A stretch of 64,000 bases of DNA from a virus. The position numbers were made by a program, and so were the translations under genes. Positions 31,755 to 45,438 of this stretch are shown in pieces. Position 1 is the first letter of the stretch. Every line of letters starts with the position of its first letter. The notes beneath the pieces are model-generated. The model ran no database searches and had not been told where the DNA came from. It saw only the letters and a list, made by a program, of their open reading frames with translations. Location of the stretch: the IMG/VR virus record IMGVR_UViG_3300020170_000001, positions 32,001 through 96,000 of that record, one strand, 5' to 3'.

Positions 31755-32276
31755 TCAGGAGATTCGCACGTACGGAATTCCGCCGTTGACGTCGTCGACC
31801 TCGGCTGCGTTGCGAACGACCCAGTGACCGTCCGGCGCGCGGCGTAGCCCGTCGGGAAGGACTTGGACGGAGCCGCTGCCCACGATGGATGCGGCCGGCA
31901 TGGCGAGTTGCTCGACGGCGATGTCCCACCAGAACAGCCCGGTGCCGAGGTCGCCGGCCAGCTTGAGCCCGGCGATGGAGGTCCTGGCGGCGTTGAGCCC
32001 GCGGGAGTAGCTGTAGGAGCCGACCGTCTCGGCTTGGAACGGCCCGGCCTTGACGACGGCGAAGGGCTGTTCCAAATACAGCTTGTCGGCCATCTCCAGG
32101 ATGGCGTTGTTGGCGAGCAACACCTTGTCCGGATCGTCGGGCATGGCGGTGAGTTGGGTGACGATGGAAAACATCAACGTGGCCTGCGCCAGCGCCTCAT
32201 CGGAGAAGGGCGTGAAGCTTTGCGCGGGCCGCCCGGTGAATACCGCGAGGTCCGCTGTTGTCGGCACAGGCAGCAC
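31755..32276 (-). CDS. Head-to-tail adaptor
   Basis: PTTADL...ETVGSYSYS motif typical of actinophage adaptors. Confidence 0.65.
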   Translation of the reverse strand: MLPVPTTADLAVFTGRPAQSFTPFSDEALAQATLMFSIVTQLTAMPDDPDKVLLANNAILEMADKLYLEQPFAVVKAGPFQAETVGSYSYSRGLNAARTSIAGLKLAGDLGTGLFWWDIAVEQLAMPAASIVGSGSVQVLPDGLRRAPDGHWVVRNAAEVDDVNGGIPYVRIS

Positions 32277-32293: not shown

Positions 32294-32974
32294 TTAGGCT
32301 TGGCTCAGCGACGGCAGGCGCGGTGCCGAGCGCTGCTTTCGGCGTTTCTCCGCGGCTGCCAACTCCTGCTCCGACGGCGGCGCGATGCGGCCCTCGCCGC
32401 GCTCGACGCGCAGGATCTCGAAGTTCCCGTCCGAGTAGGACTTCCCGGGCCACGGCCCGCTGCGAAACATGACCGTGCCGAATCGCTCCACCTGGGCGAA
32501 GTCGTTGTCGCGCAGGTCCAGCCAGGTTTTGCCGCGCCGGTCGAAGGTGTCGCGGTAGGCTTGCGAGCCGACTTCGAATTCGAGTTCGTCGCCGCGATAC
32601 CAGATCCGTCCGAGCGCGGTCAGGCCATCTCCCAGGAAATGAATCAGAATGTTCCTCTGATCTCCGGGCTCCTGCACTTCCTCGACGACGGGCTCGACGT
32701 CTTTGCTGCCGGAGAGCCGGGCGATCTGATCGCGCAGGGCCTTGATCTCTTGCTGCTCCGGAGTCATCTCGTCGTCGACCAGGGCCTTCTCATCCGGCGG
32801 GGCCGGGGTCAGGTCGACGGGAAGATCAGCCTCCGGAATTTCGTCCGCGGCGGACGTGTCGATCCGATCGAACTGGTCCAGGGCGCTACCGGCCACGGGC
32901 GTCTCGGCCGCCGACTTCGCGGGGCCGACGGCACGGGGCTGACGCTTGCCACTGGCGGGTACTCCTCGGGGCAT
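32294..32974 (-). CDS. Hypothetical protein of the head-tail region
   Basis: 226-aa ORF with an acidic N-terminus and a short coiled coil. Confidence 0.65.
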   Translation of the reverse strand: MPRGVPASGKRQPRAVGPAKSAAETPVAGSALDQFDRIDTSAADEIPEADLPVDLTPAPPDEKALVDDEMTPEQQEIKALRDQIARLSGSKDVEPVVEEVQEPGDQRNILIHFLGDGLTALGRIWYRGDELEFEVGSQAYRDTFDRRGKTWLDLRDNDFAQVERFGTVMFRSGPWPGKSYSDGNFEILRVERGEGRIAPPSEQELAAAEKRRKQRSAPRLPSLSQA

Positions 32975-33036
32975 GGTTGGCCACCACCTTTCCCCGGTCC
33001 TTATCGGGTGTCAGGCGAGGAAGTACCAGTGCAGGC

Positions 33037-33693
33037 CTAAGCGACCTTGAAGCGGATTGTTGGCGGCGTAGAGTTCGTCCCGCCGTTGACCGTGGGATAC
33101 GACAACGGTGTGTTGCTACCGCTGCCGCTCTGGGTCCAATAGGTTTGCGGAGCTCCACCCTGTGGGCCGTTGGCATTCATTGCCCACGGAACGCGATAGC
33201 AGTAGGGTCCAGCCGACGCGGGCGCTACGCCAGTTGAACTTCCCGCAAACGCGAGGAAATTCCAGCCGGCGGGCACGGTCGTTGTGGTGATCGTGATCGA
33301 CGTCTGGGTGGCGGATGTACCGGATGCCGACACCAGCAGTTGCGCGGGGCGAAGTGTGATGGGGTCCATGGTGTTGATGCCGACCTTCATCGCCAGCCCA
33401 GTGCCGGCTACGACATAACACCCGATGGCCGTCACCGACACCGCCGACGTGAAGTAACACGGAACATAGATGCAGTTGATGAAGGCAGAACTAGTGGACG
33501 TGTCGAAGTCAACAACGACGCGATTGTCGTACCAGTTGCCTGACACGTACGTCTGCGGATAAGGCGTTGCCGGGTTGGACCAACCGAAGGCGTAGTCGGC
33601 GGCGGAGGTCTTCGTCAAAGCGTGACTGGTGTTGCCGCCGGCGAATGCGTGGACGGCTATAAGAGCGGGACTGACGTCACCGATGGTTGGCAC
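33037..33693 (-). CDS. Fibre/decoration-like paralog D (WYDNR family)
   Basis: GGNTSHALTKTSAADYAFGW followed by SGNWYDNR. Confidence 0.65.
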   Translation of the reverse strand: MPTIGDVSPALIAVHAFAGGNTSHALTKTSAADYAFGWSNPATPYPQTYVSGNWYDNRVVVDFDTSTSSAFINCIYVPCYFTSAVSVTAIGCYVVAGTGLAMKVGINTMDPITLRPAQLLVSASGTSATQTSITITTTTVPAGWNFLAFAGSSTGVAPASAGPYCYRVPWAMNANGPQGGAPQTYWTQSGSGSNTPLSYPTVNGGTNSTPPTIRFKVA

Positions 33694-33708
33694 GGCAGGT
33701 CTCCTCGC

Positions 33709-34362
33709 TCACGCGACTCTAAAGCTAACGAGTGGACAGTCGGGAAGCGCGATCGCGGACGTCAGGCTCACGGTTGGATTCGCTTTCGGCTGGGCAGACG
33801 TGTTGTCCTGGAGAACCCACGTCTGCGGATTCGTCGAGATTGACGTCCCTGCTCCAAGGAATGAGCGGGCTCCTCTGGACTGAAACGTGCCAACCTGCCC
33901 GGATCCAGAGGTCCCCCACGCCAGGTAGCACCAGCCCGCGGGGAGTGCCGTAGACGTGATTGAAGCAGTCGCCGCCGCACCGCTTGTGGCGGTGATCGGC
34001 GTTGCAGCAACCAGTTGTGCGCCGGGAAGGCCGGTGGAGAGCACCGAGTTGATACCGACGTAACACGTCGACCCGCCCAGTGACACCGAGTAGAAGCCGA
34101 CCGAATTAATCGTAATTGACGACGACAGTAACACCGGCATATAAAAGCAATTGTTGGCAGTGAATCCATTCTGTTGCGTCGGCGAGGGGGCCCCCGACAC
34201 GCGATTGTCATACCAACTCCCGGAGACAAAGGTGGTCTCTGGGCCGAACGGCGGATTTGACCAGTCGACATCGAAATCAGCGTCCGTGTTCTTGACCAAG
34301 ACCGCCCCAGAAGCTCCGCCTGCCGGGTAGTCTTCCGCCGCCGGTACGCCAATCGAGACCAC
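33709..34362 (-). CDS. Fibre/decoration-like paralog C (WYDNR family)
   Basis: PAGGASGAVLVKNTDADFDVDW followed by SGSWYDNR. Confidence 0.65.
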   Translation of the reverse strand: MVSIGVPAAEDYPAGGASGAVLVKNTDADFDVDWSNPPFGPETTFVSGSWYDNRVSGAPSPTQQNGFTANNCFYMPVLLSSSITINSVGFYSVSLGGSTCYVGINSVLSTGLPGAQLVAATPITATSGAAATASITSTALPAGWCYLAWGTSGSGQVGTFQSRGARSFLGAGTSISTNPQTWVLQDNTSAQPKANPTVSLTSAIALPDCPLVSFRVA

Positions 34363-34384
34363 GCCGAACCCCCTCCTCCAGCCG

Positions 34385-35065
34385 CTATGTGACCTGAAAC
34401 CAGATTACCGGCGTTACACTGTCCTTCGTTGCAGTCACCGTCGGATTTGACACAATTGCGGAACTTGTCGAGTCGACATAGTAGGCGACGGGACTGGTAT
34501 TCGCGGCTGCCGGCCCCGTCGAATTGAGCGAAAGCGGGGTCGCAAACTGTATTGTCTGGGCTCCAGCCGGGACAATGCCGCCGTTCGCTACGATCGACAA
34601 CCAATTCCACCCCGCGGGCACTGCGACGGGGGAAAAGGTGCCGGTGTAGGCAGCTAGCCCTGCCAACGTAAACGAGGTCGTCGCCAGCACCGTCCCCGGC
34701 AGCCCCGAAGAAGCCGACTGGCTGAGTCCGACCGAACCGACCGGGCCGCTGACGCTAGTTGCCTGGTAAAAGCCCAAAGCCGTCACCTTGATCGGCGCGT
34801 GCATATAGACCGGCACATAGGTGACATAATTGGTGGTCGGGGAAAAGCTAGTTGAACTCGCCGCCGCCGGAGCGACCCGATTGTCATACCACTGACTCGC
34901 GAGGTAGGCAGCGGGAGACAGGTGGATAGCGACAGGGTCTCCCGGCACCGTCGTCCAGGACGCATGGTAGTCGTTTGTCGAGGTCTTGGTCAGAATCCGA
35001 TCTGCCGTTCCACCGGGCGGCAACCCGATGGTCGGCCTGAACGATGCGCGGCCTACCGTCACCAT
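34385..35065 (-). CDS. Fibre/decoration-like paralog B (WYDNR family)
   Basis: PPGGTADRILTKTSTNDYHASW followed by ASQWYDNR; ATG at 35065. Confidence 0.65.
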   Translation of the reverse strand: MVTVGRASFRPTIGLPPGGTADRILTKTSTNDYHASWTTVPGDPVAIHLSPAAYLASQWYDNRVAPAAASSTSFSPTTNYVTYVPVYMHAPIKVTALGFYQATSVSGPVGSVGLSQSASSGLPGTVLATTSFTLAGLAAYTGTFSPVAVPAGWNWLSIVANGGIVPAGAQTIQFATPLSLNSTGPAAANTSPVAYYVDSTSSAIVSNPTVTATKDSVTPVIWFQVT

Positions 35066-35067
35066 CG

Positions 35068-36162
35068 TTAGCCCACCACCCGGTACCACACGTTCGCCGA
35101 GGCCACCAGACCCGTGGTGAAGGTCATGGACAACGGCGTTGCCGTTGCGACAAGTGCTGCGCCGGTACCCGCCTCATAGAACATGTAACTGGTCTGCGTG
35201 GCGACTGCCGACGCTTGGGTCAACGACGACAGTCCCGACTGCGGGGCAATAGTCGCGGTATTCGCGACGGTGTAAATGGAACTGGAGTTTGTGGAGTTGC
35301 ACGAGAGCGCCCACCACGACCATCCCTTGGGAATCGTGCCGGAGGCCGCGAGGGTGTAGACGGTGCTGTTTGCGGTGGGCGACACGGTGCCGAAGTCGTA
35401 GATGCGCGTTCCGGGCGCGTTCGTCGCCGAGTTGGTGTAGAGGCCTATGCGAATCGTCGCGCCTCCGGTCGGCGTCGACGACCCGGTGATGATCGCTACC
35501 GTGTCGATGACCAACGCCCGGTGGGCGAACATCGGCACGTACGAGACGCTGCTGATCGCGATTGGTGCGGAACCCGCGGTGCCGGACGACACCGATGTGA
35601 GGGTGATGTTGGACCCGGTCGGGGTCCGCCGGTCGTGCCAGTTTCCGTTGGTGTACGCCGGTGTCCATAGTGTCTGGAGGCTGTCGGTCCCGGCGCTGAC
35701 GATCGCGGTGTTCTGGATCTGCCAGTTGGTGCCGTCGAACACAAAGGTCGCCGCGGCCTCGGGCGAGGTGATCACGCAGGTGGCGTCGCCGTCGATCGTG
35801 GTTCCGCCGGACCCCACAACGGTGATCGCGTTGCCGCTGACGTCGGTCTTCTTGGCCCCGACGGTGACCCCGGCGCTCGGCGACGCTGGCAATGTGACAG
35901 TAAACGCGCCACCATTGGCGTTGCAGAGGACCAGCTGACCCGAAGCGGCGGTGTAGTTGGCGGTCTTCGATGCGGTTGGCGTGAGCCCGCCGCCGCCCGA
36001 GGACGCCGTGATCCACCCGGTGTCGTAGTCGGTCCCGGAGCTCTTGGCCAGCACCTGCCCGGTCGTGCCGCCCGTAGGCATGGCGACAAGACGCGGGTCG
36101 GTCTCCAGCGCGAGCAGAGCTCCGCCGTACGACTGCCGTTGCTGTACTTTCCGGGTGGCCAT
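35068..36162 (-). CDS. Fibre/decoration-like paralog A (WHDRR variant with an extra domain)
   Basis: PTGGTTGQVLAKSSGTDYDTGW, a TLPA..P...FDGTNW domain, then NGNWHDRR. Confidence 0.65.
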   Translation of the reverse strand: MATRKVQQRQSYGGALLALETDPRLVAMPTGGTTGQVLAKSSGTDYDTGWITASSGGGGLTPTASKTANYTAASGQLVLCNANGGAFTVTLPASPSAGVTVGAKKTDVSGNAITVVGSGGTTIDGDATCVITSPEAAATFVFDGTNWQIQNTAIVSAGTDSLQTLWTPAYTNGNWHDRRTPTGSNITLTSVSSGTAGSAPIAISSVSYVPMFAHRALVIDTVAIITGSSTPTGGATIRIGLYTNSATNAPGTRIYDFGTVSPTANSTVYTLAASGTIPKGWSWWALSCNSTNSSSIYTVANTATIAPQSGLSSLTQASAVATQTSYMFYEAGTGAALVATATPLSMTFTTGLVASANVWYRVVG

Positions 36163-36166
36163 CAGA

Positions 36167-37075
36167 TCACATCTTCGAAACGACGGCGTGGAACTCGTTA
36201 GTGGCCCACACCGCGTCGGGCTTGAGGGTCACCGTGTTCAGGTCAGTGTGTTCCACATACACGTCAACCTCGTCGAACGGGGAAGCGACCCGGTACACCA
36301 TGACGTTCACGGCACGGGTGCCGAAGCTGTGGGTGATCGCAAAGCTAGTCGCCGCGCCGTTGCCGCAGTCCTGCTCGACCGGAGCCGTAGCGGCGGTGGT
36401 AACTCCGACGTAGATGAACGCGGCGGTAGTGGTGTTGAGAGTGAACGTATCGTTGGTCATCAGCGCGAACTTGTCGGCCTGAGTGCCCTGCAACACGATC
36501 CAGTACGAACCGACGATGGCGGTGGCGGTGGTGCTCCAGTTCTGCGCCCGAGCCATCGTCGCGCCGGTGGCGGTCCACACGTAGGGACCGTTTTGGGAGC
36601 CGGTGGTCTGTCCGGCGAGCAGGAACACGTCCCCGTTGGTGGGGGTGACTCCGTCGATCGTGGCCGGGGCGGAAGCGAGGTTGACGTTGGTGGCGGCGAC
36701 CGCCCGCACTGTGCCCTTGAGGGTCTGCCCGGACGAGAGGAAGGCAATTTGAGTCTCAAGATCGATCTGGCGGACGGCGTCGTTGGACCCCTGAATCGCG
36801 GCTGCCAGGTTCGTAAGCCGCTGGCTGTTCATGCTGACCAGGGTGGTGGGGGCTTGCAGCTGGTCGATACGGCTAGTGTGAACCTGCGTGTCGAAGTCGC
36901 TGATGGTCGCTGCAAGCTGGGTGCCGGTGTGGTTGGCGCGGGAGATGGAGAACGTCTGCACGCTCTCGATGTCGACCTTACGAGCTGCATCATTGCTCGC
37001 CGCTGTGGGTGCCCCCAGGTTGATTACCTTGAGGCCGTTCATGTCCTTATTGGAAGCGTCTTTACGGGCGGTCAT
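36167..37075 (-). CDS. Fibre/decoration-like protein, large partner 3
   Basis: NLGAP..SNDA repeats, TVRA...IDGVT...GQT...NGPYVW domain, C-terminal ITHSFGT domain. Confidence 0.65.
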   Translation of the reverse strand: MTARKDASNKDMNGLKVINLGAPTAASNDAARKVDIESVQTFSISRANHTGTQLAATISDFDTQVHTSRIDQLQAPTTLVSMNSQRLTNLAAAIQGSNDAVRQIDLETQIAFLSSGQTLKGTVRAVAATNVNLASAPATIDGVTPTNGDVFLLAGQTTGSQNGPYVWTATGATMARAQNWSTTATAIVGSYWIVLQGTQADKFALMTNDTFTLNTTTAAFIYVGVTTAATAPVEQDCGNGAATSFAITHSFGTRAVNVMVYRVASPFDEVDVYVEHTDLNTVTLKPDAVWATNEFHAVVSKM

Positions 37076-37097
37076 GGTGCAGTTCCTCCGACAATTG

Positions 37098-37928
37098 TCA
37101 GGACAAGTAGGCGGTTCCGGCGATGCTGATATCGAAGGACAACCGCAACGACTGCCCCGGGGTTAGGTATTGAACTCCGCCACCGTCGATGGTGTAACCG
37201 TCGTCGGAGATGACTGTCAGTCCGGCGGGATCAAAACCCAACCCGTGGGTGATTTGCCAGACCGTTGCCGGAGTGCTCTGATCATGGCGATACCCGGCGG
37301 CAGCATTCGCACCCGGCGGGCCGGTGGCTCCCTGCTGGACGAGCAGCCCCCACGTCGCAGTGGTGGTATTGACGACGGGAGCGGTGTTGGTGCTCGCCAA
37401 GATCGCGACATAAGCGCCGCCGCTGAAGAAGACGACGTCGTTGATGGCGTAGGTGACGCCGCTGTTCCAGGTGCTGCGGTAGGTGAAGTTCTTCGCACCG
37501 GGGTCGAAGATCACCGTCGACTCGACGCGCCAGTTGGTGCCGTCGAAGACGAGGACGGCTCCGGACTGGGCTTGCAGCAGAGTCAGGGTGGCGTCGCCGT
37601 CGACGGTTGCGCCGCTGGAGCCGACGACGGTGACCAGGTTGAGGCTGGCGTCGACCTTCTTGATCGCCACGGAGGTGTTCGTGGCCGGCGTGGCCGGCAG
37701 CGTGATGGTCAGCGCGGCGCTGCTGGCGTCGGCAAGGATGAAGTCGCCAACGGCCGCGGTCGCGGCGACGTTGACGGAGCGCACAGCGAGGGTCTGACCG
37801 CCGCCGCCTTCCAGCACGGCGACTCGGGCGGAGAGTGCGGCGTCGGCGGAGTCTACATAGCCCTTCCGGACTGCCTGCGAGGCGGTCGTCGCCGCCGGGA
37901 TATCCAGGGCCGTCCCGAGGAACTTCAT
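37098..37928 (-). CDS. Fibre/decoration-like protein, upstream partner 3
   Basis: C-terminal HDQSTPATVWQITHGL...AGTAYL domain; WNSGVTYAINDVV module. Confidence 0.65.
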   Translation of the reverse strand: MKFLGTALDIPAATTASQAVRKGYVDSADAALSARVAVLEGGGGQTLAVRSVNVAATAAVGDFILADASSAALTITLPATPATNTSVAIKKVDASLNLVTVVGSSGATVDGDATLTLLQAQSGAVLVFDGTNWRVESTVIFDPGAKNFTYRSTWNSGVTYAINDVVFFSGGAYVAILASTNTAPVVNTTTATWGLLVQQGATGPPGANAAAGYRHDQSTPATVWQITHGLGFDPAGLTVISDDGYTIDGGGVQYLTPGQSLRLSFDISIAGTAYLS

Positions 37929-37977
37929 CAGCCAGTCACCGCCCTTTCGCGTTGACCTATCGGTCCGAGCAGGACCG

Positions 37978-38178
37978 TCAAGGGGTCGCCGGGAACCGGG
38001 TGAACCGCGACACCGCCGGCCAGCTCGTCGAGCCGGTCGACATCACTCGCGCCGCGACCTCCTTAGTGGGGCCCGCCTTGATCATCGCCGCGCTCAGCGG
38101 CATCGTCTGTGCAAGGAAACGCACCAGGTACGGGAACGTCGGCTGGGCCCACAGCCCTGTCGAGGTCAGCGCCGCCAT
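37978..38178 (-). CDS. Small hypothetical protein
   Basis: ATG at 38178 with AGGAG SD. Confidence 0.45.
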   Translation of the reverse strand: MAALTSTGLWAQPTFPYLVRFLAQTMPLSAAMIKAGPTKEVAARVMSTGSTSWPAVSRFTRFPATP

Positions 38179-38182
38179 CGCG

Positions 38183-40240
38183 TCACACTCCTGAGTCGAC
38201 GAAGAAGCCGTAGGTGGAGGCCGGGCCGGCGAACCGTACGTAGGTTTTGCCTCCGGCGGTGACCGTGTCGCCGGCCACCGAGGCCACCAGGCTGCACACC
38301 GTCCCGTACAACAGCCCCCGGATGGCGTCCGGCCAGTTGATGACCGTGCGGGCGGAGCCAATCGGCACCCGCGACAGGCTGCACGGGTTGCCGTACAACG
38401 GCGCGGTGGTCGAGGTCGGCGTGTACGCCCCCGGGCTAATGGCGTTGGTGCCGCCCAAGTTGTTGTAGCAGTAACCGTTATGGATGCGGGCCTCGAAGTT
38501 CAAGAGCACCGACAACGTCTGCAGCGGCTCCCGGGTGAACCCGCCGACCTGCAGCAGGCTGTTGCTACCGATGGCCCAGGCATTGGTCTGGGCGGTCGGG
38601 AACTGCGCGGCCACCAGCGGCTGGCCCGTCGTGCCCGCCGGGAGCAAGTCCTCGTACAGGCCTGCGTAGAACCCCATCTCGGAAGCCGCCTTCACCCCGA
38701 GGATCACCCGGTCCGGGGTCGCGCTGAACCAGTAGGTGAACGGCGACCCGGCCGCGAGCGTAACTGAGGCTGGGCCCGCATGAGCCTGATCCGCGAGGGT
38801 AGCGACGTCCGGGTTGAGGTAGGTGCCGGTGACCGGAATCCCGCCCAGACCGCGCCCGCCGAAGTTGCTGGCCTTGTGTGTGCTCGTGTCGTAGGCTTCG
38901 GCGACCTGATAGAAGATCGTGTTGGCTGCTTCCGAGGCGCGGCGCAGGATCAGGTACCAGTCCGTGCCAGACGTATTCGACGCGCCGGGACTCTTGTAGA
39001 CATCCGCGCAGGGGCTGGCCGACGTGCCGGGCATGTTCCGCGAGGTCCAGGTGATTCCATCCGACGAGGTCGCGGTGACGGTGGAGGTGCTGGTCGCGAC
39101 GAGCTGGCCGCCCGCGTAGACCGGCTGATTCCAGCTGATGCTCACCGGCAGGGTCCGGGCGGTCCAGGTGATCCCGTCCGGCGAGGACAGAGCGACCGTG
39201 CCCGTGGTGTTGCACACCACCCAGACGCTGCCGGTGTAGACCGGCGGGTACCAGTTGCCGCTGACGGGCAGGGTTCGCTGGGTCCAGGTGATCCCGTCAG
39301 TAGAAGTCACCGCGACCGTGCCCGAAGCGGTGACCACCACCCAGATGCCGCCGGCATAGACCGGCGGTTGCCAGCCTGAGGCGGTGGGCAGGGTCCGCGA
39401 GGTCCAGGTAATGCCGTCCGGCGAGGTGTTAATCGTGGCAGAAGCGGAGTTGTTCATCAGAACCCACAGGTTGCTGCCGTTATGGACCGGCAAGTACCAG
39501 GCCATGCCAGACGTGGCCAGGGTCCGCTGTGTCCAGGTCACCCCGTCGGGCGAGGTCGCGGCGACGGTGGAGGCTGCGGTGTTGATCGCGATATACACGC
39601 TGCCGTTGTAGGCCAACTGCAGCCAGCTGGTACTGACTGGCAGGGTCCGCGCGGTCCAGGTGATCCCGTCGGACGAGGTCAGCACGTTGGTGCCCGCGTT
39701 GTTGATCGACAGGAACTGCCCGCCCGCGTAAATCGGCTGAATCCAGGTTGTGCTGACCGGCAGGGTCCGCTGGGTCCAGGTCACCCCGTCCGGCGAGCTC
39801 AAGGCGACGTTGCCCACGGTGTTGAATACGACCCAGATGCCGCCGCCGTACACCGGCAGCCGCCAGGTGCCCGTGGTGGGTAGAGTCCGCTGGGTCCAGG
39901 TGATCCCGTCAGTCGAGGTCGCGGCGACTGTTCCTGAGGTGTTGAGCACCAGCCAGGTGCCGCCGCCATAGACCGCCTGCATCCAGAAGGATGCGGGGGT
40001 GGGAAGGCTCCGCTGGGTCCAGGTGAACCCGTCGGGCGAGGTCGCCACCGAGGTCGATGAGTTGATGGTCGAGACCACATACAGGTTGTTGGCGTACGTG
40101 GGCATCTGCCAGTTCGGGCCGGCGGGGCTGCTGAAGGTCTCCACGAAGGTGAGCCCGGCCGGGACCAGGGCCGTGTTCAGCGCCGCCATCAGATCCTTGG
40201 CAGGCAGGGCGCTGTTGATCGACGCCGTCGAATAACTCAT
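38183..40240 (-). CDS. Asp-box/BNR-repeat beta-propeller virion protein
   Basis: Nine SxDGxTWTxRxLP repeats of about 39 aa; ATG at 40240. Confidence 0.8.
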   Translation of the reverse strand: MSYSTASINSALPAKDLMAALNTALVPAGLTFVETFSSPAGPNWQMPTYANNLYVVSTINSSTSVATSPDGFTWTQRSLPTPASFWMQAVYGGGTWLVLNTSGTVAATSTDGITWTQRTLPTTGTWRLPVYGGGIWVVFNTVGNVALSSPDGVTWTQRTLPVSTTWIQPIYAGGQFLSINNAGTNVLTSSDGITWTARTLPVSTSWLQLAYNGSVYIAINTAASTVAATSPDGVTWTQRTLATSGMAWYLPVHNGSNLWVLMNNSASATINTSPDGITWTSRTLPTASGWQPPVYAGGIWVVVTASGTVAVTSTDGITWTQRTLPVSGNWYPPVYTGSVWVVCNTTGTVALSSPDGITWTARTLPVSISWNQPVYAGGQLVATSTSTVTATSSDGITWTSRNMPGTSASPCADVYKSPGASNTSGTDWYLILRRASEAANTIFYQVAEAYDTSTHKASNFGGRGLGGIPVTGTYLNPDVATLADQAHAGPASVTLAAGSPFTYWFSATPDRVILGVKAASEMGFYAGLYEDLLPAGTTGQPLVAAQFPTAQTNAWAIGSNSLLQVGGFTREPLQTLSVLLNFEARIHNGYCYNNLGGTNAISPGAYTPTSTTAPLYGNPCSLSRVPIGSARTVINWPDAIRGLLYGTVCSLVASVAGDTVTAGGKTYVRFAGPASTYGFFVDSGV
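39030..40090 (-). repeat. Nine coding tandem repeats of about 117 bp (Asp-box)
   Basis: Recurrent ggtccaggtgatcccgtc-like words on the + strand. Confidence 0.85.
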
Positions 40241-40698
40241 CCGAACTTCTCCACTCGCAGATTCGACAGCGTGAATACCCGGACGCTTGGTCCGGTGTTG
40301 CGGATCCCGACGAACAGGTCCTGCCCGGCGGCGTCGTTTTCGAGATACCAGGGCACGGGGTTGGAGTAGCTGGCGGTGGTGATCCCGATCGCCTGCAGCC
40401 ACAAGGTGCCCGAGGTGTTGCCGGCTCCGCGGACTTCCAGGTCGAAGGAGCCGGCCGCGTCTACCGTGACCGTGATGAGGCTGACCAGGCCTCGCGCGGC
40501 GATGGACGGCACGGTGTAGTAGGTGAAGGCCGTCTGGCTGCCGGACTGGGTGCCCAGCGTCACGGCTGTCGCGGTGACCTTGCTCGGCCCGACGCCAACA
40601 GCCCACTGGTAGTCGAAGTCGACGGTGGACTTCTTCTGCAGAAACCACCCGGTCGTGCCGCCAGGCGGCACGCGAGAACCCGATCCCACTGACGGCAT
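40237..40698 (-). CDS. Structural protein sharing the GGTTG..L.K.S..D.D..W motif
   Basis: PPGGTTGWFLQKKSTVDFDYQW at the N-terminus. Confidence 0.65.
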   Translation of the reverse strand: MPSVGSGSRVPPGGTTGWFLQKKSTVDFDYQWAVGVGPSKVTATAVTLGTQSGSQTAFTYYTVPSIAARGLVSLITVTVDAAGSFDLEVRGAGNTSGTLWLQAIGITTASYSNPVPWYLENDAAGQDLFVGIRNTGPSVRVFTLSNLRVEKFG

Positions 40699-40717
40699 GT
40701 GCGTCTCCTTGCCGAGA

Positions 40718-42262
40718 TCAGCCGACGATGACGCAGCGGTATTGGCCGGAGGTCGGCGCGGCCCCGAAGACCAGGGCGACGTTGTTGGCGTCGGTGCGCT
40801 GGACTTCGGCGTAGACGGTGTCGTAGGGGGCGGCGGCGGAGTACACCTCGACGTGCACGTCGCGGGTGTTCAGGTTGTGGTTGATCGTGATGGTGGTGGC
40901 GACGCCGTCGCCGAGCGACGCGGCGAACCGGCGGGCGACGACCGCGGTGTCGATGGCGATGTTGGCACCGACCACGATGCCCAGACCGGCAACGGCCTTG
41001 ACACCGGGCACGCCGACCGCGAGGCCGCCGGACGGGTCGAGAACCGTGCTGACCCCGGCTGCGGCGACCGCGATGCCGGAGTTCGGCTTGGGCACGACGG
41101 CCAGGCCGGTTGCGCTGGTCGCGAGACCGCCGGCCGGGTCGGTGGTGATGCCGACGCCGGTGACGTCGACGTCGAGGCCGTCGTTGGGCCGCAGCACCAC
41201 GCTGACGCCGGTGGCGTCGACGCCGATGCCGGTGTTCGGCTTGGGCACCACACCGACCCCGGCGGCGTCGACCGATAGGCCGCCGGTCGGGCGGGGCACC
41301 ACGTACAGGCCGGTCGCGTCGGTGATCAGGCCGCTGATCGCGGGCAGTTTCGCCGCGATGCCGCTTACGCCGACCTGCAGACCTCCGGTGCCGGTGGCGA
41401 CCGCCACAACGCCGGTCGCGCCGACGGTGACACCGTTGCCGGGCAGGACCTGCAAGCCGGTGGCATCAACGGTGAGGCCCTTGTTCGGGGCCAGCACCGT
41501 CTGCACGCCGGTGGCGTCGACGGCGAGGCCGGCGCTCGGCTTGATGGTGACGCCGGCACCGTTGGCGTCGGTGTCGAGGCCGTAGTTGGGGCGCGGGACG
41601 AACTTGAGGCCGTTGGTGTCCTCGAAGAGTCCGGCGTTCGCGACGAGCTTGACCGCGACGCCGTTGGTCCCGACGTTCAGGCCTCCGGTGGGATCGGCGA
41701 TCACGCCGATGCCGGAGCCGGTCACGGCGACGCCGCTGTTCGGGGCCGGGACCGCGGTGACGACGTGGTTGGTGATGTCGACGCCGTTGCCGGCGGTGTA
41801 GATCGGCGAGGTGCCAGCGTTTAGCAGCGCCCACTGAATCGCCGTGGTGCCGATGCTGATCGGCCCATCGGTGATCAGCACGTAGGTGTGGTTGCCGCTG
41901 GCGGTGCCCTCGGAGACGGTGACGGCCGTGCCGGGCCGCAGCTCGGCGTTGGTGTCGGCGTCAGCGGAGCGGGTCAGCGCGGTGCCGGTGAAGTCGTAGA
42001 TGCCGTTCTCGATGGGGTTGGTCTGCCCCATGAGCAGGACGCGGTCGTTGGCGGCGAGGGTGACCCCGTCGATGGCCACGCCGGGCGCGCCGACGGTGAC
42101 GTTGGCGGACGCTGCGACCCGGACGGCGTCCTTCCAGATCAGACCAGTCGCGATGTTGTCGACATACTGCTTGGTAACCGCGTCGGTGCTGACGGCCGGA
42201 GCGCCCAGGTTGGTGATGCGGTTGAGCTTGAGGTCGAGAAGCTGGGTATAGGTAATTGCCAT
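40718..42262 (-). CDS. Fibre protein, large partner 2, with a 17-aa repeat shaft
   Basis: NLGAP..STDAVTKQYVD, WKDAVRV...IDGVT...NGIY domain, about 16 repeats, C-terminal INHNLNT domain. Confidence 0.75.
   Translation of the reverse strand: MAITYTQLLDLKLNRITNLGAPAVSTDAVTKQYVDNIATGLIWKDAVRVAASANVTVGAPGVAIDGVTLAANDRVLLMGQTNPIENGIYDFTGTALTRSADADTNAELRPGTAVTVSEGTASGNHTYVLITDGPISIGTTAIQWALLNAGTSPIYTAGNGVDITNHVVTAVPAPNSGVAVTGSGIGVIADPTGGLNVGTNGVAVKLVANAGLFEDTNGLKFVPRPNYGLDTDANGAGVTIKPSAGLAVDATGVQTVLAPNKGLTVDATGLQVLPGNGVTVGATGVVAVATGTGGLQVGVSGIAAKLPAISGLITDATGLYVVPRPTGGLSVDAAGVGVVPKPNTGIGVDATGVSVVLRPNDGLDVDVTGVGITTDPAGGLATSATGLAVVPKPNSGIAVAAAGVSTVLDPSGGLAVGVPGVKAVAGLGIVVGANIAIDTAVVARRFAASLGDGVATTITINHNLNTRDVHVEVYSAAAPYDTVYAEVQRTDANNVALVFGAAPTSGQYRCVIVG
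40950..41780 (-). repeat. About 16 coding repeats of about 51 bp (beta-spiral-like shaft)
   Basis: Repeats such as GVVPKPNTGIGVDATGV, SVVLRPNDGLDVDVTGV, QTVLAPNKGLTVDATGL. Confidence 0.8.
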
Positions 42263-42274
42263 TTCGGGCGTCTC

Positions 42275-42742
42275 CTAGGGCCGCAGGTATGCCGTGCCGG
42301 TATATGGCGCGCTATGCACAACCACAGTCGTCTGGTCACTCGGGTGATGGATTTCTGCGATCATTTCCTGACCGCCGCTGTCCAAAAGGATCACGTTCGG
42401 GATCAGGCTCATGTGGTGGTCGATGACCCACTGCGCAGCCGGAACCGTCTGATGGTGGGTGAAGGAGATGCCCCCGCCGACAGCAACGCTCTGAATCTCG
42501 TCTTCGAGTTGCCGGGCGGTGTTTTCCCACTCGTATTGGAATCCGCGTCCGCCGCCTGCGGTCGGATCGGTGACATCGAGATCGGTCGTGCGGATCAGCG
42601 CGGCCCCGCGGATCTCCTTCTCCTCCGCTGCTGTCGAGAGCAGTGGGAAGGGAGCGCGCTGGGTCTTACGCAGCAATGGCCGGCGGGCACGATTCGACTG
42701 CCGCTCGTCGGACGGCTGGGAGGTGCTGTCGGCCCCTGACAC
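42275..42742 (-). CDS. Fibre/decoration-like protein, upstream partner 2
   Basis: C-terminal HHQTVPAAQWVIDH...TGTAYL domain. Confidence 0.65.
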   Translation of the reverse strand: MSGADSTSQPSDERQSNRARRPLLRKTQRAPFPLLSTAAEEKEIRGAALIRTTDLDVTDPTAGGGRGFQYEWENTARQLEDEIQSVAVGGGISFTHHQTVPAAQWVIDHHMSLIPNVILLDSGGQEMIAEIHHPSDQTTVVVHSAPYTGTAYLRP

Positions 42743-42777
42743 GACCTACTACATCGGAAGGAGTCCGTGAGGACGGG

Positions 42778-42996
42778 CTATTCCTTGTTGCCGCTCAGCA
42801 GCGCAATGACCTCACGCAGCGACGCGATCTGTGCGTCGTGCAGCCGTAGTTGGGTTTGCATCTGATCCTGCACCGACCGCAGAACGTCGATCTGATCGAC
42901 CAACGATTTTCTGGTCTGGGTGATGTCCCTTTCGGCGCTCAGGTCTTGCAGGTTGCTCAGCACCTCTGACAGCCTTTCCGCCGGTTCAGCGGCCAC
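42778..42996 (-). CDS. Small coiled-coil protein
   Basis: Heptad-rich 72 aa, overlapping the upstream gene. Confidence 0.65.
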   Translation of the reverse strand: MAAEPAERLSEVLSNLQDLSAERDITQTRKSLVDQIDVLRSVQDQMQTQLRLHDAQIASLREVIALLSGNKE

Positions 42997-43300
42997 GACG
43001 TTTCGCCTCCGCCCGGTGCATCGCTGTGCGCAGCAGGAACCAGAATCCGAGAACGAACCACACTACCGCGATGGCTTGAATGGTGTGATTGAGAACCATC
43101 CACTCCGAGTGTTGGAACCCGAAGGCCATCGACAGGTGAGTGATGGCGCAGGTGACGAAGAAGAACGAGCCGGCGAGCCGGACGGATCGCGAGAGCGGCA
43201 GGTAGCGCAGCACCGTGAATGGGACCACGCAGTAGCCGGCGACGATGACCAGATTGGAGACGACGTTAAGTACCACCCAGTGCGGATCTCCCGGGATCAT
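42986..43300 (-). CDS. Three-TM membrane protein resembling the ETR1-type ethylene-binding domain
   Basis: SNLVIVAGYCVVP (N16, Y23, P27) and FFFVTCAITHL (C51, H55) reproduce the ETR1 D25/Y32/P36 and C65/H69 spacing; ATG at 43300. Confidence 0.7.
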   Translation of the reverse strand: MIPGDPHWVVLNVVSNLVIVAGYCVVPFTVLRYLPLSRSVRLAGSFFFVTCAITHLSMAFGFQHSEWMVLNHTIQAIAVVWFVLGFWFLLRTAMHRAEAKRRGR

Positions 43301-43302
43301 CG

Positions 43303-43821
43303 TCAGCGGCCCTGCAGAGCGGGGCCGCCCGGGTAGAGGCGCTGCATGCATTCCAGGAATTTCTCGCCCTTGGGATCGGTCGACAACGGGTTGGTACGCG
43401 CGCAGTAGAACCCGACCAGGTTGTACTGCTTGACCTGATCCAGGAGTTGGTTCTGCAGGATGGCGTTCCGCTTGCCGCACTCACCGGTCGAATTCACACA
43501 GTCCAACAGCAGGGAGTTGAGCCTGCTGACTTGTTCCTCCTGCTTCTGCGTCGCCGAAATGTTAACCGCGTTAACAATCGCGAGCGTCAGCAGAATGACC
43601 ATCGCGCCGCCCACGAGGTAGGTGAGCCACCGGGTCTGGCGGTTGTTTTTCTCCAGCACGTCGATCTTCCGATCGCGGGCCTCGGTCTCTCGGCGCACGT
43701 GCTCCACTAGCGCCACCATGGTCTTGTTGGATTCGTGGTTCGCCGCAACAAGTTCCTCGACCGCGAGCGCACTGTGCAGGCGGCTGGCCTTCTCGTCGGC
43801 TGTCTCGCCCAGACCGGTCAT
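43303..43821 (-). CDS. Single-pass membrane protein with a coiled coil and a 4-Cys C-terminal domain
   Basis: TM WLTYLVGGAMVILLTLAIVNAV; four Cys downstream. Confidence 0.75.
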   Translation of the reverse strand: MTGLGETADEKASRLHSALAVEELVAANHESNKTMVALVEHVRRETEARDRKIDVLEKNNRQTRWLTYLVGGAMVILLTLAIVNAVNISATQKQEEQVSRLNSLLLDCVNSTGECGKRNAILQNQLLDQVKQYNLVGFYCARTNPLSTDPKGEKFLECMQRLYPGGPALQGR

Positions 43822-43967
43822 CGCTCCACGCCCTTCAACTCATCCCGGAGTCGCCTGATGAGCTCCTCCTGCCGTTGCAGAATCCGGTCGTGTTCCTGAA
43901 CGGCGCGCTGCAACTCCGCGAGAACGTCCTCAGTGTCTGTCTCAACACGACGCTCAGTGGCCGCCAT
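43818..43967 (-). CDS. Small coiled-coil protein (49 aa)
   Basis: ATG at 43967; VLAELQRAVQEHDRILQRQEELIRRLRDEL; overlaps both neighbours. Confidence 0.6.
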   Translation of the reverse strand: MAATERRVETDTEDVLAELQRAVQEHDRILQRQEELIRRLRDELKGVER

Positions 43968-44358
43968 CGCGATCGCCCCCTCCAGGCGGGCCGACTTCCG
44001 CTGCACGTCCACGGCGAGGACCGCTGGGTGGATTGCCCTTATCCTGACGGAGGATGCTGTCACGTATTTTCATTTCGGTAATGAGTTGGATCGCCTCTTC
44101 CAGAACGTCGGCTACCTGCTTGTGCAGCAGGGCCGCTTCGACCTGCTTCGGCAGCAACTCGTTGCGAATGAATTCGTTCAGCTCCTTGGCTTGTTGCGCG
44201 GCCTGGTCGCTTTTCTCGCGTTCCCGAGCGATGGACCCACGGGTATACATGATCATCAGGGCGGCGAAGATGCCCAGGACCCCGTACTGCAGGAGCGCGC
44301 CGACCGGATCTGTGGCGCTCGGGGAACTGGCCAGAACCAGGTCCTCGATGCGCAGCAT
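43954..44358 (-). CDS. Membrane protein with a coiled-coil tail (holin-like)
   Basis: TM ALLQYGVLGIFAALMIMY followed by a charged coiled coil. Confidence 0.7.
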   Translation of the reverse strand: MLRIEDLVLASSPSATDPVGALLQYGVLGIFAALMIMYTRGSIAREREKSDQAAQQAKELNEFIRNELLPKQVEAALLHKQVADVLEEAIQLITEMKIRDSILRQDKGNPPSGPRRGRAAEVGPPGGGDRDGGH

Positions 44359-44387
44359 GACAATCCCTATCGGATCGCAGAATAGGC

Positions 44388-44421
44388 GCAGCCTCCGCCC
44401 ACTCGGGAGGGCGGAGGCTGC
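44388..44421 (-). terminator. Hairpin after the major capsid gene
   Basis: 13-bp inverted repeat GCAGCCTCCGCCC / GGGCGGAGGCTGC. Confidence 0.7.
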
Positions 44422-44436
44422 ACGGCATGGCCCGAT

Positions 44437-45438
44437 TTACGGCACGGTCACGTCAGCGACGAAGATCATCTGCTCGGGCCGGGTGATGACCGGCATGATG
44501 TTCCACTCCAGCAGGTACTGCCGGGCGGACGGGTCCTTGTCGATCCAGCTCTTGGAGAACTTTCCGGTGAAGTTGTCCGGGGCCTCTTCGTCGGCGGTCG
44601 GACCGACGTACATTTCGATCGGCCGCTGGTCGGTGTAGTTGCCCATGTAGAGCGCGTTGTCCGGAACGAACAGGGTGTTGTTGCCGGCGTCGTCGTCGTA
44701 GATCGTTTCGATGGTGTTCCAGTTCATGCCCATGAAGCCCGGCAGCGTCCCGCTGGCGAAGTACTGGTCCTTCATCCGGTCGGACATCAGGATCGAGGCG
44801 TTCGCGCCGTGGGAGGCGAACGAGTCGAAGATGTACGCCATGGTCAGTTCGGTGACGTAGCTGTCCTTGGCCTCGACCCGGCCGTCGCGGCGGATGAGGC
44901 GCTTGAAGGCGCGGATGTCGCCGACGATCTGCTGCGGCGTCGCGGTGTTCCAGCCGACCGTGACGGTGGGCTTGTGCGAGGCCGGGAATTGATAGTCGAC
45001 GTTGGCCTGCACGTCGGGGAAGTCGTAGGTGATGCTGCCCTTCAGGGCCGCCCACAGCAGGAACTCGCCGAAGTTGTCGAACCGCTGGTTGAGGTCGTTG
45101 ACCTCGCGGAGCACCGCCTGCTCGGCGTTGGTCTGGGCGAGCTGGCCGGGCTGGCGCAGCCAGTGCAGGGTGGTCGGCGAGAAGACCTTCTTCTCGCGCA
45201 GGTAGACGAACGCGGCGCTGGCCTGCGAACGGCCGAGCCGGGGCACGATGTGTGCCTCGCTGTTGGGCACGTTCGGCTTCGCGACCATGCGGGAGCCCTT
45301 GATGACATCCCAGGTGACCGAGGGGAACGGCCACGGGGTCTGCGGAACCTGGCTGAGCATCGTCAGGGTTTCCGGAGTGGTGAATTTCTCGACCACGCCC
45401 CGAAGGACCGTGGGTTCGAGAAGCGAAATCTGAGGCAC
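44437..45438 (-). CDS. Major capsid protein (lambda gpE-like family)
   Basis: 333 aa with highly biased codon usage; follows the scaffold and decoration genes; VDYQFP and C-terminal MPVITRP motifs. Confidence 0.85.
   Translation of the reverse strand: MPQISLLEPTVLRGVVEKFTTPETLTMLSQVPQTPWPFPSVTWDVIKGSRMVAKPNVPNSEAHIVPRLGRSQASAAFVYLREKKVFSPTTLHWLRQPGQLAQTNAEQAVLREVNDLNQRFDNFGEFLLWAALKGSITYDFPDVQANVDYQFPASHKPTVTVGWNTATPQQIVGDIRAFKRLIRRDGRVEAKDSYVTELTMAYIFDSFASHGANASILMSDRMKDQYFASGTLPGFMGMNWNTIETIYDDDAGNNTLFVPDNALYMGNYTDQRPIEMYVGPTADEEAPDNFTGKFSKSWIDKDPSARQYLLEWNIMPVITRPEQMIFVADVTVP

Follow-up and report, generated by a model that had tools for sequence, protein, structure and literature searches.

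To our knowledge, the receptors of plants, cyanobacteria and proteobacteria use the ethylene-binding domain as an input module that is always joined to an output domain. In the receptors ETR1 and ERS1 of Arabidopsis, SynEtr1 of Synechocystis and AzoEtr1 of Azospirillum, it is built from three transmembrane helices. This study describes a phage protein with the same number of helices, P0001, which is encoded by a gene of its own at positions 42986..43300 (minus strand) of a 64,000-nucleotide stretch of viral DNA, here called the window, that covers positions 32,001 to 96,000 of IMG/VR record IMGVR_UViG_3300020170_000001 (genome coordinates of the gene, 74986-75300). The record, a virus contig of 124,652 bp with a G+C content of about 65% and a CheckV completeness of 93%, is a large uncultured phage of actinobacteria. 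P0001 and the receptors share, in register, the motifs S-[D/N]-x2-I-x2-[A/G]-Y-x2-[I/V]-P and F-[I/F]-x2-C-[G/A]-x-T-H-L, and the profile match extends across the whole domain. Unlike the receptors, P0001 is without an output domain, be it GAF, PAS, kinase or another type, and it carries Asn in place of Asp25. A phage-borne, output-less ethylene-binding domain of the Asn type, devoid of Lys91 and set in a capsid-proximal membrane cassette, is a new form of this domain.

Homology to the ethylene-binding domain and stand-alone form

Translation of the open reading frame (ORF) gives a protein of 104 aa with three membrane helices and a strongly basic C-terminal tail. Helix 1 bears SNLVIVAGYCVVP, containing N16, Y23 and P27, and helix 2 bears FFFVTCAITHL, containing C51 and H55. 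The length, the three helices and the two motifs had been described in an original prediction made from the sequence alone, and they are borne out both by the translation and by an AlphaFold2 model (60 homologues, mean pLDDT 87.7) with long helices at residues 6-25, 38-59 and 66-103. The ATG start codon lies 2 nt past the TGA of a 172-aa ORF upstream. An alternative frame of 164 aa begins at an upstream GTG, and is unsupported because the homologues are only 99-127 aa long; the nearest of them, 97% identical, likewise has 104 aa. A predicted homodimer of two copies scored 0.24 against a mark of 0.42, which weighs neither way on pairing.

Four alignments were used for comparison with the receptors. 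A1 holds 60 close homologues that are 50-97% identical, and A2 consists of P0001 plus 59 representatives of 50%-identity clusters. The 66 stand-alone members of A3 are those of A2 minus P0083, P0098, P0102 and P0111, plus 10 from A1. A4 comprises 73 non-identical, 108-aa segments of bacterial ETR1_N domains, and was derived from 120 loci found in bacterial genomes with a DNA pattern for the helix-2 motif. In most of these loci the helix-1 motif D-x6-Y-x2-I-P lay exactly 36 residues upstream; 47 were dropped as having no helix-1 motif by regular expression, a spacing of 34, 35, 37 or 41, a cut at a contig end, or a duplicate sequence. The Pfam family PF25487 (ETR1_N) was matched by all 73 segments, with a best E value of 1.2e-46. 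The way in which A4 was built makes its motif columns invariant, and their conservation there is therefore no evidence.

Alignment of the stand-alone family (A3) with the bacterial domains (A4) by hhalign gave 96.1% and E 3.2e-9, with a score of 53.0 over 95 columns, while the close homologues (A1) against A4 gave 88.9% and E 2.4e-6 over 86 columns. All 61 controls fell below the score of 53.0: reversed A4 reached 18.8, 30 global column shuffles at most 14.8, and 30 shuffles inside 12-column blocks at most 32.4 (median 12.8). In what are taken to be the residue numbers of ETR1, the register pairs N16 with Asp25, Y23 with Tyr32, V26 with Ile35, P27 with Pro36, F47/F48 with Phe61/Ile62, C51 with Cys65, T54 with Thr68 and H55 with His69. 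The ETR1-type homology put forward in the original prediction is thereby supported, with the Cys/His pair, the Tyr and the Pro all kept, at an identity of 18-19% between phage family and bacterial domains in the profile alignment.

As a single sequence, P0001 matched Pfam ETR1_N at E 2.4e-4 over model positions 2-95 of 97, and Got1/Sft2 tied with ETR1_N in the same scan. ETR1_N was matched at E<=0.01 by 38 of the 60 close homologues in A1 (best E 2.6e-5) and by 14 of the 60 sequences in A2 (best E 5.4e-7). Kinship with Got1/Sft2 was rejected, because its match vanishes in the diverse relatives while that to ETR1_N stays: at E<=0.01 it dropped from 26/60 in A1 to 1/60 in A2, the query only. By features, the ETR1_N family set was common to 17 of the 30 nearest clusters in the ESM Atlas, and the top three (107-138 aa) had PF25487 in 37-64% of their members and Uroviricota as the commonest phylum. 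When clusters with PF25487 were removed, the best feature score was <=0.83, and MASE-type sensor domains surfaced but no holin family. By structure, the Atlas returned plant ethylene receptors and bacterial ETR1_N kinases at TM-scores of 0.70-0.75 (by query), although such scores carry little meaning for short helical bundles.

Some results weigh against the assignment. P0001 alone misses the gathering cut-off of Pfam ETR1_N (21.8 against 27 bits), none of 29 relatives scanned singly reached it (top score 21.7 bits), and Foldseek found no match at E<=0.001 in the PDB or BFVD. When PDB sequences were searched with the family profile, only chance matches came up, the best being a melatonin receptor (E 0.048). 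The profile and structure comparison with ETR1-type domains that the original prediction had proposed was thus favourable in hhalign and the Atlas, which agree, while Foldseek returned nothing significant. On these sequence comparisons, P0001 is very probably a true but diverged member of the ETR1_N superfamily.

The phage proteins are short. Among the 59 cluster representatives, 58 measure 92-176 aa and the remaining one 364 aa; P0001, at 104 aa, is not fused to a GAF, PAS, kinase or cyclase domain, and a search with A3 that covered proteins of 257-2000 aa gave no relatives, which is weak evidence. The sampled bacterial ETR1_N domains lie mostly in open frames of several hundred to 1,345 aa, some of them being shorter and cut at contig ends. 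The lengths of the relatives, together with the capsid-proximal position described below, agree with the earlier description of a free-standing protein in a late phage gene block. Searches with tblastn, using P0001 and the distant member P0105, found nothing in 50,697 phage records, and megablast of the 8 kb around the gene gave no match in cultured phages. The plasmid tblastn returned a single chance match (E 10), and family patterns detected no relative in 185,579 bacterial species genomes. An open frame of 140 aa, whose ETR1_N score of 21.1 bits is below threshold, at G210:C9:63899-64111 (minus strand) in a genome of the bacterial phylum that was sampled for fused sensors (see below), may be a stand-alone bacterial copy, perhaps of a prophage.

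The literature searched contained no paper about ethylene-binding domains that are encoded by phages or stand alone. The statement in the original prediction that no such phage system was known therefore holds for that literature, but database names have already labelled phage clusters as containing ETR1_N: the automatic name given by the Atlas to such clusters is 'Ethylene receptor 1-like, N-terminal domain-containing protein'. The alignment of 1,221 domains in PMC10266040 could already contain Asn variants or short forms.

Conserved and altered residues of the predicted ligand site

C51, H55, Y23 and P27 are invariant in all 60 close homologues, and N16 is kept in 59. Across the more diverse sequences of A2, Asn is found at this position in 41 of 60, whereas in the 73 bona fide bacterial domains the position of Asp25 is occupied by Asp in 71 and by Asn in two. 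The Cys/His pair of A2 is kept entire in 44 of 60 sequences, lost entirely in 12, and reduced to one residue in four. Cys and His behave as a unit, in keeping with a role that they share, for example in binding a metal. In the survey of N/D16, Y23, C51 and H55 among homologues that the original prediction had suggested, the four are therefore invariant or nearly so in the close relatives, and the Cys/His pair is complete in these 44 of the 60 A2 sequences. That Cu(I) or another soft metal is bound at the predicted site is given an even chance.

The polar residues that are strictly conserved within the helices are N16, Y23, C51, T54, H55, N71, H72 and Q75. The last three belong to helix 3, where the phage family conserves them instead of Lys91; the column of this lysine, which is Lys in 65 of the 73 bona fide domains, aligns to T73. 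The loop between the first and second transmembrane helices is five residues shorter than in the bona fide domains, and the spacing from N/D to the first Phe of the F-I/F-x-x-C motif is accordingly 31 in P0001 against 36. Set against a list of seven residues presumed to be those for ethylene binding, with Tyr32, Ile35, Pro36 and Ile62 among them, Y23 and P27 are identical and invariant, and the changes of I35 to V26 and I62 to F48 are conservative.

Published work on the receptors bears on several of these positions. Seven is the number of residues required for ethylene binding in PMC11819568, where the N-terminal 130 residues of a bacterial receptor, as a glutathione S-transferase (GST) fusion, are also reported to bind ethylene. 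For the exchange of Asp25 to Asn, the earlier statement that ETR1 stays functional at lower affinity is correct according to two papers: the affinity for ethylene is about 100-fold lower (PMC11971883), and copper and ethylene binding are both reduced (PMC10266040). PMC10266040 also describes a helix-3 lysine that pairs with Asp25 to transmit the signal in ETR1, and receptors that function as dimers and higher complexes. Natural Asn variants at the Asp25 position also occur inside fused sensors, as in two bacterial open frames of 1,284 and 1,345 aa (L078 and L122) with internal ETR1_N domains at about residues 880 and 565, respectively.

The post-capsid cassette and the link to lysis genes

Gene neighbourhoods were compared at 27 places, namely the window, three viral contigs and 23 metagenome contigs, many of these 26 other loci (L numbers) being short. 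The ETR1_N-like gene comes directly after the capsid gene in eight of the 27. In seven, the window and L128-L133, it is preceded by a homologue of the 172-aa protein, and usually also by the two genes before that. In L004, a three-gene unit (ETR1_N-like, four-transmembrane, and transmembrane-plus-coiled-coil) is inverted and converges on the capsid gene, and L149 carries the same unit as L003. Ten of the 27 places have no capsid homologue, several of these being short. The ETR1_N-like gene is the constant element of a variable membrane cassette. The 181-aa protein with four transmembrane helices that follows it in L003 (L003:4374-4919; homologues in L004 and L149) matches phrog_4026 'minor tail protein' at E 1.3e-16, a label that, on a multi-pass membrane protein, is probably a carry-over from gene position.

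Relatives of the gene are found near recognised lysis genes. A protein of 174-227 aa with three to four transmembrane helices comes after the gene in six of seven more distant loci inspected. In L005 and L146, the next product is a transmembrane-plus-coiled-coil protein, followed by a holin of phrog_9752 with two transmembrane helices (E 3.5e-30 and 4.7e-22), and the ETR1_N-like gene sits three genes upstream of this recognised holin; in L005 and L141, minor tail proteins are encoded upstream of it. Relatives of the phrog_9752 holin are present in 77 Gordonia and Streptomyces phage records, and in Streptomyces phage Stuff one lies two genes past the annotated endolysin. Two verified bacterial domains used as queries both matched Maribacter phages Molly and Colly. 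The protein gp65 of Maribacter phage Molly_1 (Molly1_65, 289 aa) scores 60.9 bits against ETR1_N, and its gene ends 4 nt ahead of a gene for an N-acetylmuramoyl-L-alanine amidase.

The sole endolysin candidate of the genome under study is a 259-aa protein with a C-terminal PG_binding_1 domain, encoded at genome C1:13608-14387 (locus L151:1477-2253; minus strand), which matches endolysin PHROGs at E ~1e-12. It lies about 61 kb from the ETR1_N-like gene, alone among replication-type genes and with no adjoining membrane gene, and its N-terminal half is Cys-rich and has no match among the families searched. The endolysin family search did not find Amidase_2, Glyco_hydro_25, NLPC_P60 or Peptidase_M23 in the genome, and the endolysin of Microbacterium phage Magritte had no tblastn match there. 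Since the candidate has no membrane gene beside it, the holin is presumably encoded elsewhere, and by neighbourhood the post-capsid cassette would be the obvious place. Three ORFs with two transmembrane helices elsewhere in the genome have no PHROG match, and neither supply nor exclude another holin. The sole PHROG match of P0001 itself is phrog_14464 'membrane protein' (E 0.0073), and Phage_holin_2 was matched by one of 60 relatives at E 0.0062, below the cut-off.

Upstream of the cassette, on the same strand, are genes for a Mu-like protease/scaffold, a lambda-D-type decoration protein and an E-type major capsid protein, the last at 44437..45438 (minus strand; Pfam Phage_cap_E, E 7.7e-29; 64% identical to the capsid protein of Magritte). 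Between the capsid gene stop and the cassette is a terminator- or attenuator-like, G+C-rich hairpin of 15 bp (44386..44423, minus strand; -47.7 kcal/mol, z -4.7, 0 of 200 shuffles equally stable), which was not reported by a consensus terminator scan, probably because its U-tract is weak. Five abutting or overlapping genes, all on the minus strand, come after the hairpin, with the ETR1_N-like gene as the fourth. The first (43954..44358; 134 aa as listed) specifies an N-terminal transmembrane helix and then a coiled coil, is conserved in L128, L129, L132 and L133, and has a weak PHROG match to an Rz-like spanin (E 0.036; E 0.0062 for the L132 homologue). It is followed by a small coiled-coil ORF (43818..44063; 81 aa as listed, true start uncertain), placed between two transmembrane/coiled-coil genes, which has no Pfam or PHROG match and of which homologous pieces occur in L128, L129, L130, L132 and L133. 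The third gene (43303..43821) specifies the 172-aa protein, made up of a coiled coil, one transmembrane helix and a C-terminal part with four Cys; its homologues, directly upstream of the ETR1_N-like gene in the six loci L128-L133, are 49-63% identical. Downstream of P0001, a 72-aa coiled-coil ORF (42778..42996) shares its first 11 nt with the end of the ETR1_N-like gene, and has a tblastn homologue in L131 only. Pfam gave no family for any of these four neighbours, and their PHROG matches are weak.

Beyond the cassette is a gene for a 155-aa protein (42275..42742, minus strand; phrog_30556, E 1.9e-12), which is conserved beside the cassette, with homologues in L128, L129, L131, L132, L133 and L138; a fibre-like protein of 514 aa comes after it. 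Both belong to a block of about 11.7 kb, flanked on one side by the capsid gene and on the other by homologues of Magritte genes 23/24 (window 32300-44440, genome 64300-76440), that has no counterpart in Magritte. Besides these two and the membrane cassette, the block contains, among others, a gene for an 821-aa repeat protein (weak SpuA_C and DUF6242 matches). Fibre-like genes between the capsid and head-completion genes are unusual.

Explanations for P0001 and comparison with known systems

The favoured explanation, to which a roughly even probability is assigned, is that P0001 is an accessory or regulatory subunit of a holin-type, lysis-associated membrane machinery that carries a metal site, and is not a hormone receptor acting on gene expression. 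It builds on the observed homology, conservation of the site, stand-alone form and conserved position, and on the linkage of relatives to holin and endolysin genes. P0001 would be a free-standing, three-helix protein of the inner membrane, with a predicted topology of N-terminus out and C-terminus in, and would be made late, from the small membrane and coiled-coil cassette that lies past the capsid gene. Helix 2 keeps the Cys-x3-His pair by which ETR1 holds Cu(I), and helix 1 keeps the Tyr and Pro; a soft metal is probably still held at C51/H55, and the protein may work with the co-encoded membrane and coiled-coil proteins in late lysis-type machinery. A role in or around lysis, taken by itself, is tentatively put a little below even. 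Ethylene sensing is possible but unsupported, and support is likewise lacking for the sensing of another gas or of copper and for the relay through neighbouring proteins that the original prediction proposed. It is improbable that phages of soil actinobacteria, and independently those of other bacteria, have turned the copper pocket into a free-standing switch that reads ethylene, some other unsaturated or gaseous small ligand, or the copper/redox state of the host's membrane, and gates holin triggering.

Several observations weigh against a metal-carrying subunit of the lysis machinery. Asp25 is not conserved in the phage family, P0001 having N16 in its place, and the equivalent of the helix-3 Lys91 is missing. 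The Cys/His pair has gone from 12 of the 60 A2 sequences, in lineages that retain the protein without it, so that the core role of the family cannot rest wholly on a metal site. The two main cassette types have different partner genes, and no holin profile of Pfam or PHROG matches P0001. In its own genome the gene is not beside the endolysin, and the phrog_9752 holin was not found there; the lysis link therefore rests on the gene neighbourhood of other phages. The connection with lysis that was raised in the original prediction thus gains indirect support from the relatives near a phrog_9752 holin and from the Molly_1 gene ahead of an amidase, but not from the position of the gene relative to its own endolysin.

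That P0001 is itself a holin or antiholin, a class-I-like pore former with three transmembrane helices that serves the distant orphan endolysin, in which Cys and His are structural and the ETR1_N ancestry counts for the fold alone, is unlikely. With 104 aa, three transmembrane helices and a very basic tail, it resembles holins in general by the usual criteria, the endolysin candidate has no membrane gene adjoining it and the genome yielded no match to a known holin family, an ETR1_N protein occupies the classical holin position in Molly_1, and 12 of 60 relatives manage without the Cys/His pair. Structure searches also brought up a 'Holin' cluster among the Atlas neighbours (TM-score 0.67) and a Microbacterium phage holin at rank 5 in BFVD (E 0.33), but these matches are not significant. 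A plain holin is disfavoured because of the absence of a holin profile match, because L005 and L146 encode a separate, recognised holin three genes downstream, and because the conserved polar residues within the helices resemble a binding pocket more than a pore lining. Still less probable is the idea of the original prediction, in which P0001 functions as a receptor that depends on Cu(I), binds ethylene or some other unsaturated or gaseous small ligand, and would tune lysis timing, via membrane partners, to a signal from plants or soil. The copper ligands are identical, and of the seven residues presumed above to serve ethylene binding four are the same (Tyr, Pro, Cys and His) and the other three are conservatively changed (D to N, I to V, I to F). 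ETR1 with Asp25Asn is still ethylene-responsive at about 100-fold lower affinity (PMC11971883, PMC10266040), and the GST-fused N-terminal 130 residues of a bacterial receptor suffice for binding (PMC11819568); however, the Asn also lowers copper and ethylene binding in ETR1 (PMC10266040). A signalling receptor is disfavoured because both an output domain and a Lys91 equivalent, which would relay the signal to helix 3, are missing, because the site is lost in a fifth of the clusters (12/60), and because a marine Maribacter phage has a protein of this kind too, which makes plant ethylene an unlikely cue.

A different possibility is that P0001 acts as a decoy that pairs with a host ETR1_N sensor kinase or cyclase, blocking or locking its signalling during infection. 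Fused ETR1_N sensors do exist in the likely host phylum, that of an Acidimicrobiia metagenome-assembled genome, in open frames of 422-845 aa with the exception of a 165-aa frame that was matched in part, over model positions 2-33, and receptors act as dimers and higher complexes (PMC10266040). The decoy is nevertheless very unlikely: the sensor was found in only 13 of 301 sampled genomes (~4%), the gene lies in a late structural/lysis-type block and not among early takeover genes, and the 18-19% identity to bacterial domains argues against recent capture from a host sensor. It is least probable of all, to the point of being hardly credible, that the ETR1_N resemblance arose by chance from hydrophobic composition in an unrelated small membrane protein. 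The sub-threshold Pfam score tied with Got1, the Foldseek result and the limited meaning of TM-scores for short helical bundles would allow it, but none of the 61 controls, shuffled or reversed, came up to the profile-profile match, two helices share the motif register exactly, the Got1 signal is gone in the diverse relatives while ETR1_N remains, and the nearest feature neighbours in the Atlas are ETR1_N clusters.

If P0001 is indeed part of a lysis-associated membrane machinery, the family suggests a second life of the receptor pocket in the membrane/lysis machinery of phages. Should the site bind copper or a small ligand, it would give lysis timing a chemical input of a new kind, and were the ligand-switch reading true, lysis timing would respond to an environmental or plant-derived chemical cue. 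If nothing is bound, a sensor fold has been re-used as a structural membrane part.

Among cultured phages, the nearest parallel in kind is gp65 of Molly_1. Like P0001, it is a late gene product with a phage ETR1_N-type domain, no kinase, Asn at Asp25 and the Cys and His of helix 2, and it adjoins lysis functions. It differs in being a formal Pfam member, in having a C-terminal extension of about 160 aa, and in lying directly before an amidase endolysin; its host is a marine member of the Bacteroidota, and it is annotated as a hypothetical protein. The P0001 family profile aligned with the single gp65 sequence at 8.8% and E 0.0038 over 50 columns (hhalign), and no direct relationship is claimed beyond shared ETR1_N ancestry.

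The holins of phrog_9752 and the class I holins with three transmembrane helices, lambda S105 among them, are small late membrane proteins with charged C-termini, as is P0001, and the phrog_9752 genes lie in the same run of membrane genes as the distant P0001 relatives. P0001 is unlike them in lacking any sequence or profile match, and in its conserved polar pocket, a feature characteristic of ligand sites. The closest cultured genome, that of Magritte (OR553905), is collinear in its scaffold, decoration, tail terminator, glycosyltransferase and tape-measure homologues, and its endolysin is also orphaned, in a tRNA region with no annotated holin. By tblastn with P0001, however, Magritte has no ETR1_N-like gene, and a single small gene on the reverse strand stands behind its capsid gene instead of the cassette.

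In the sequence and fold searches made here, no solved structure was matched for the membrane domain of the receptors. In helix 3 the receptors carry Lys91 and a T/S ladder, where P0001 has N71, H72 and Q75, and P0001 is also without the N-terminal Cys pair that is presumably a feature of ETR1. Compared with the receptors, the phage copies are a minimal, naturally isolated version of the ethylene-receptor pocket, of about 100 residues, in which the residues for affinity and signal relay (Asp25 and Lys91) have been altered.

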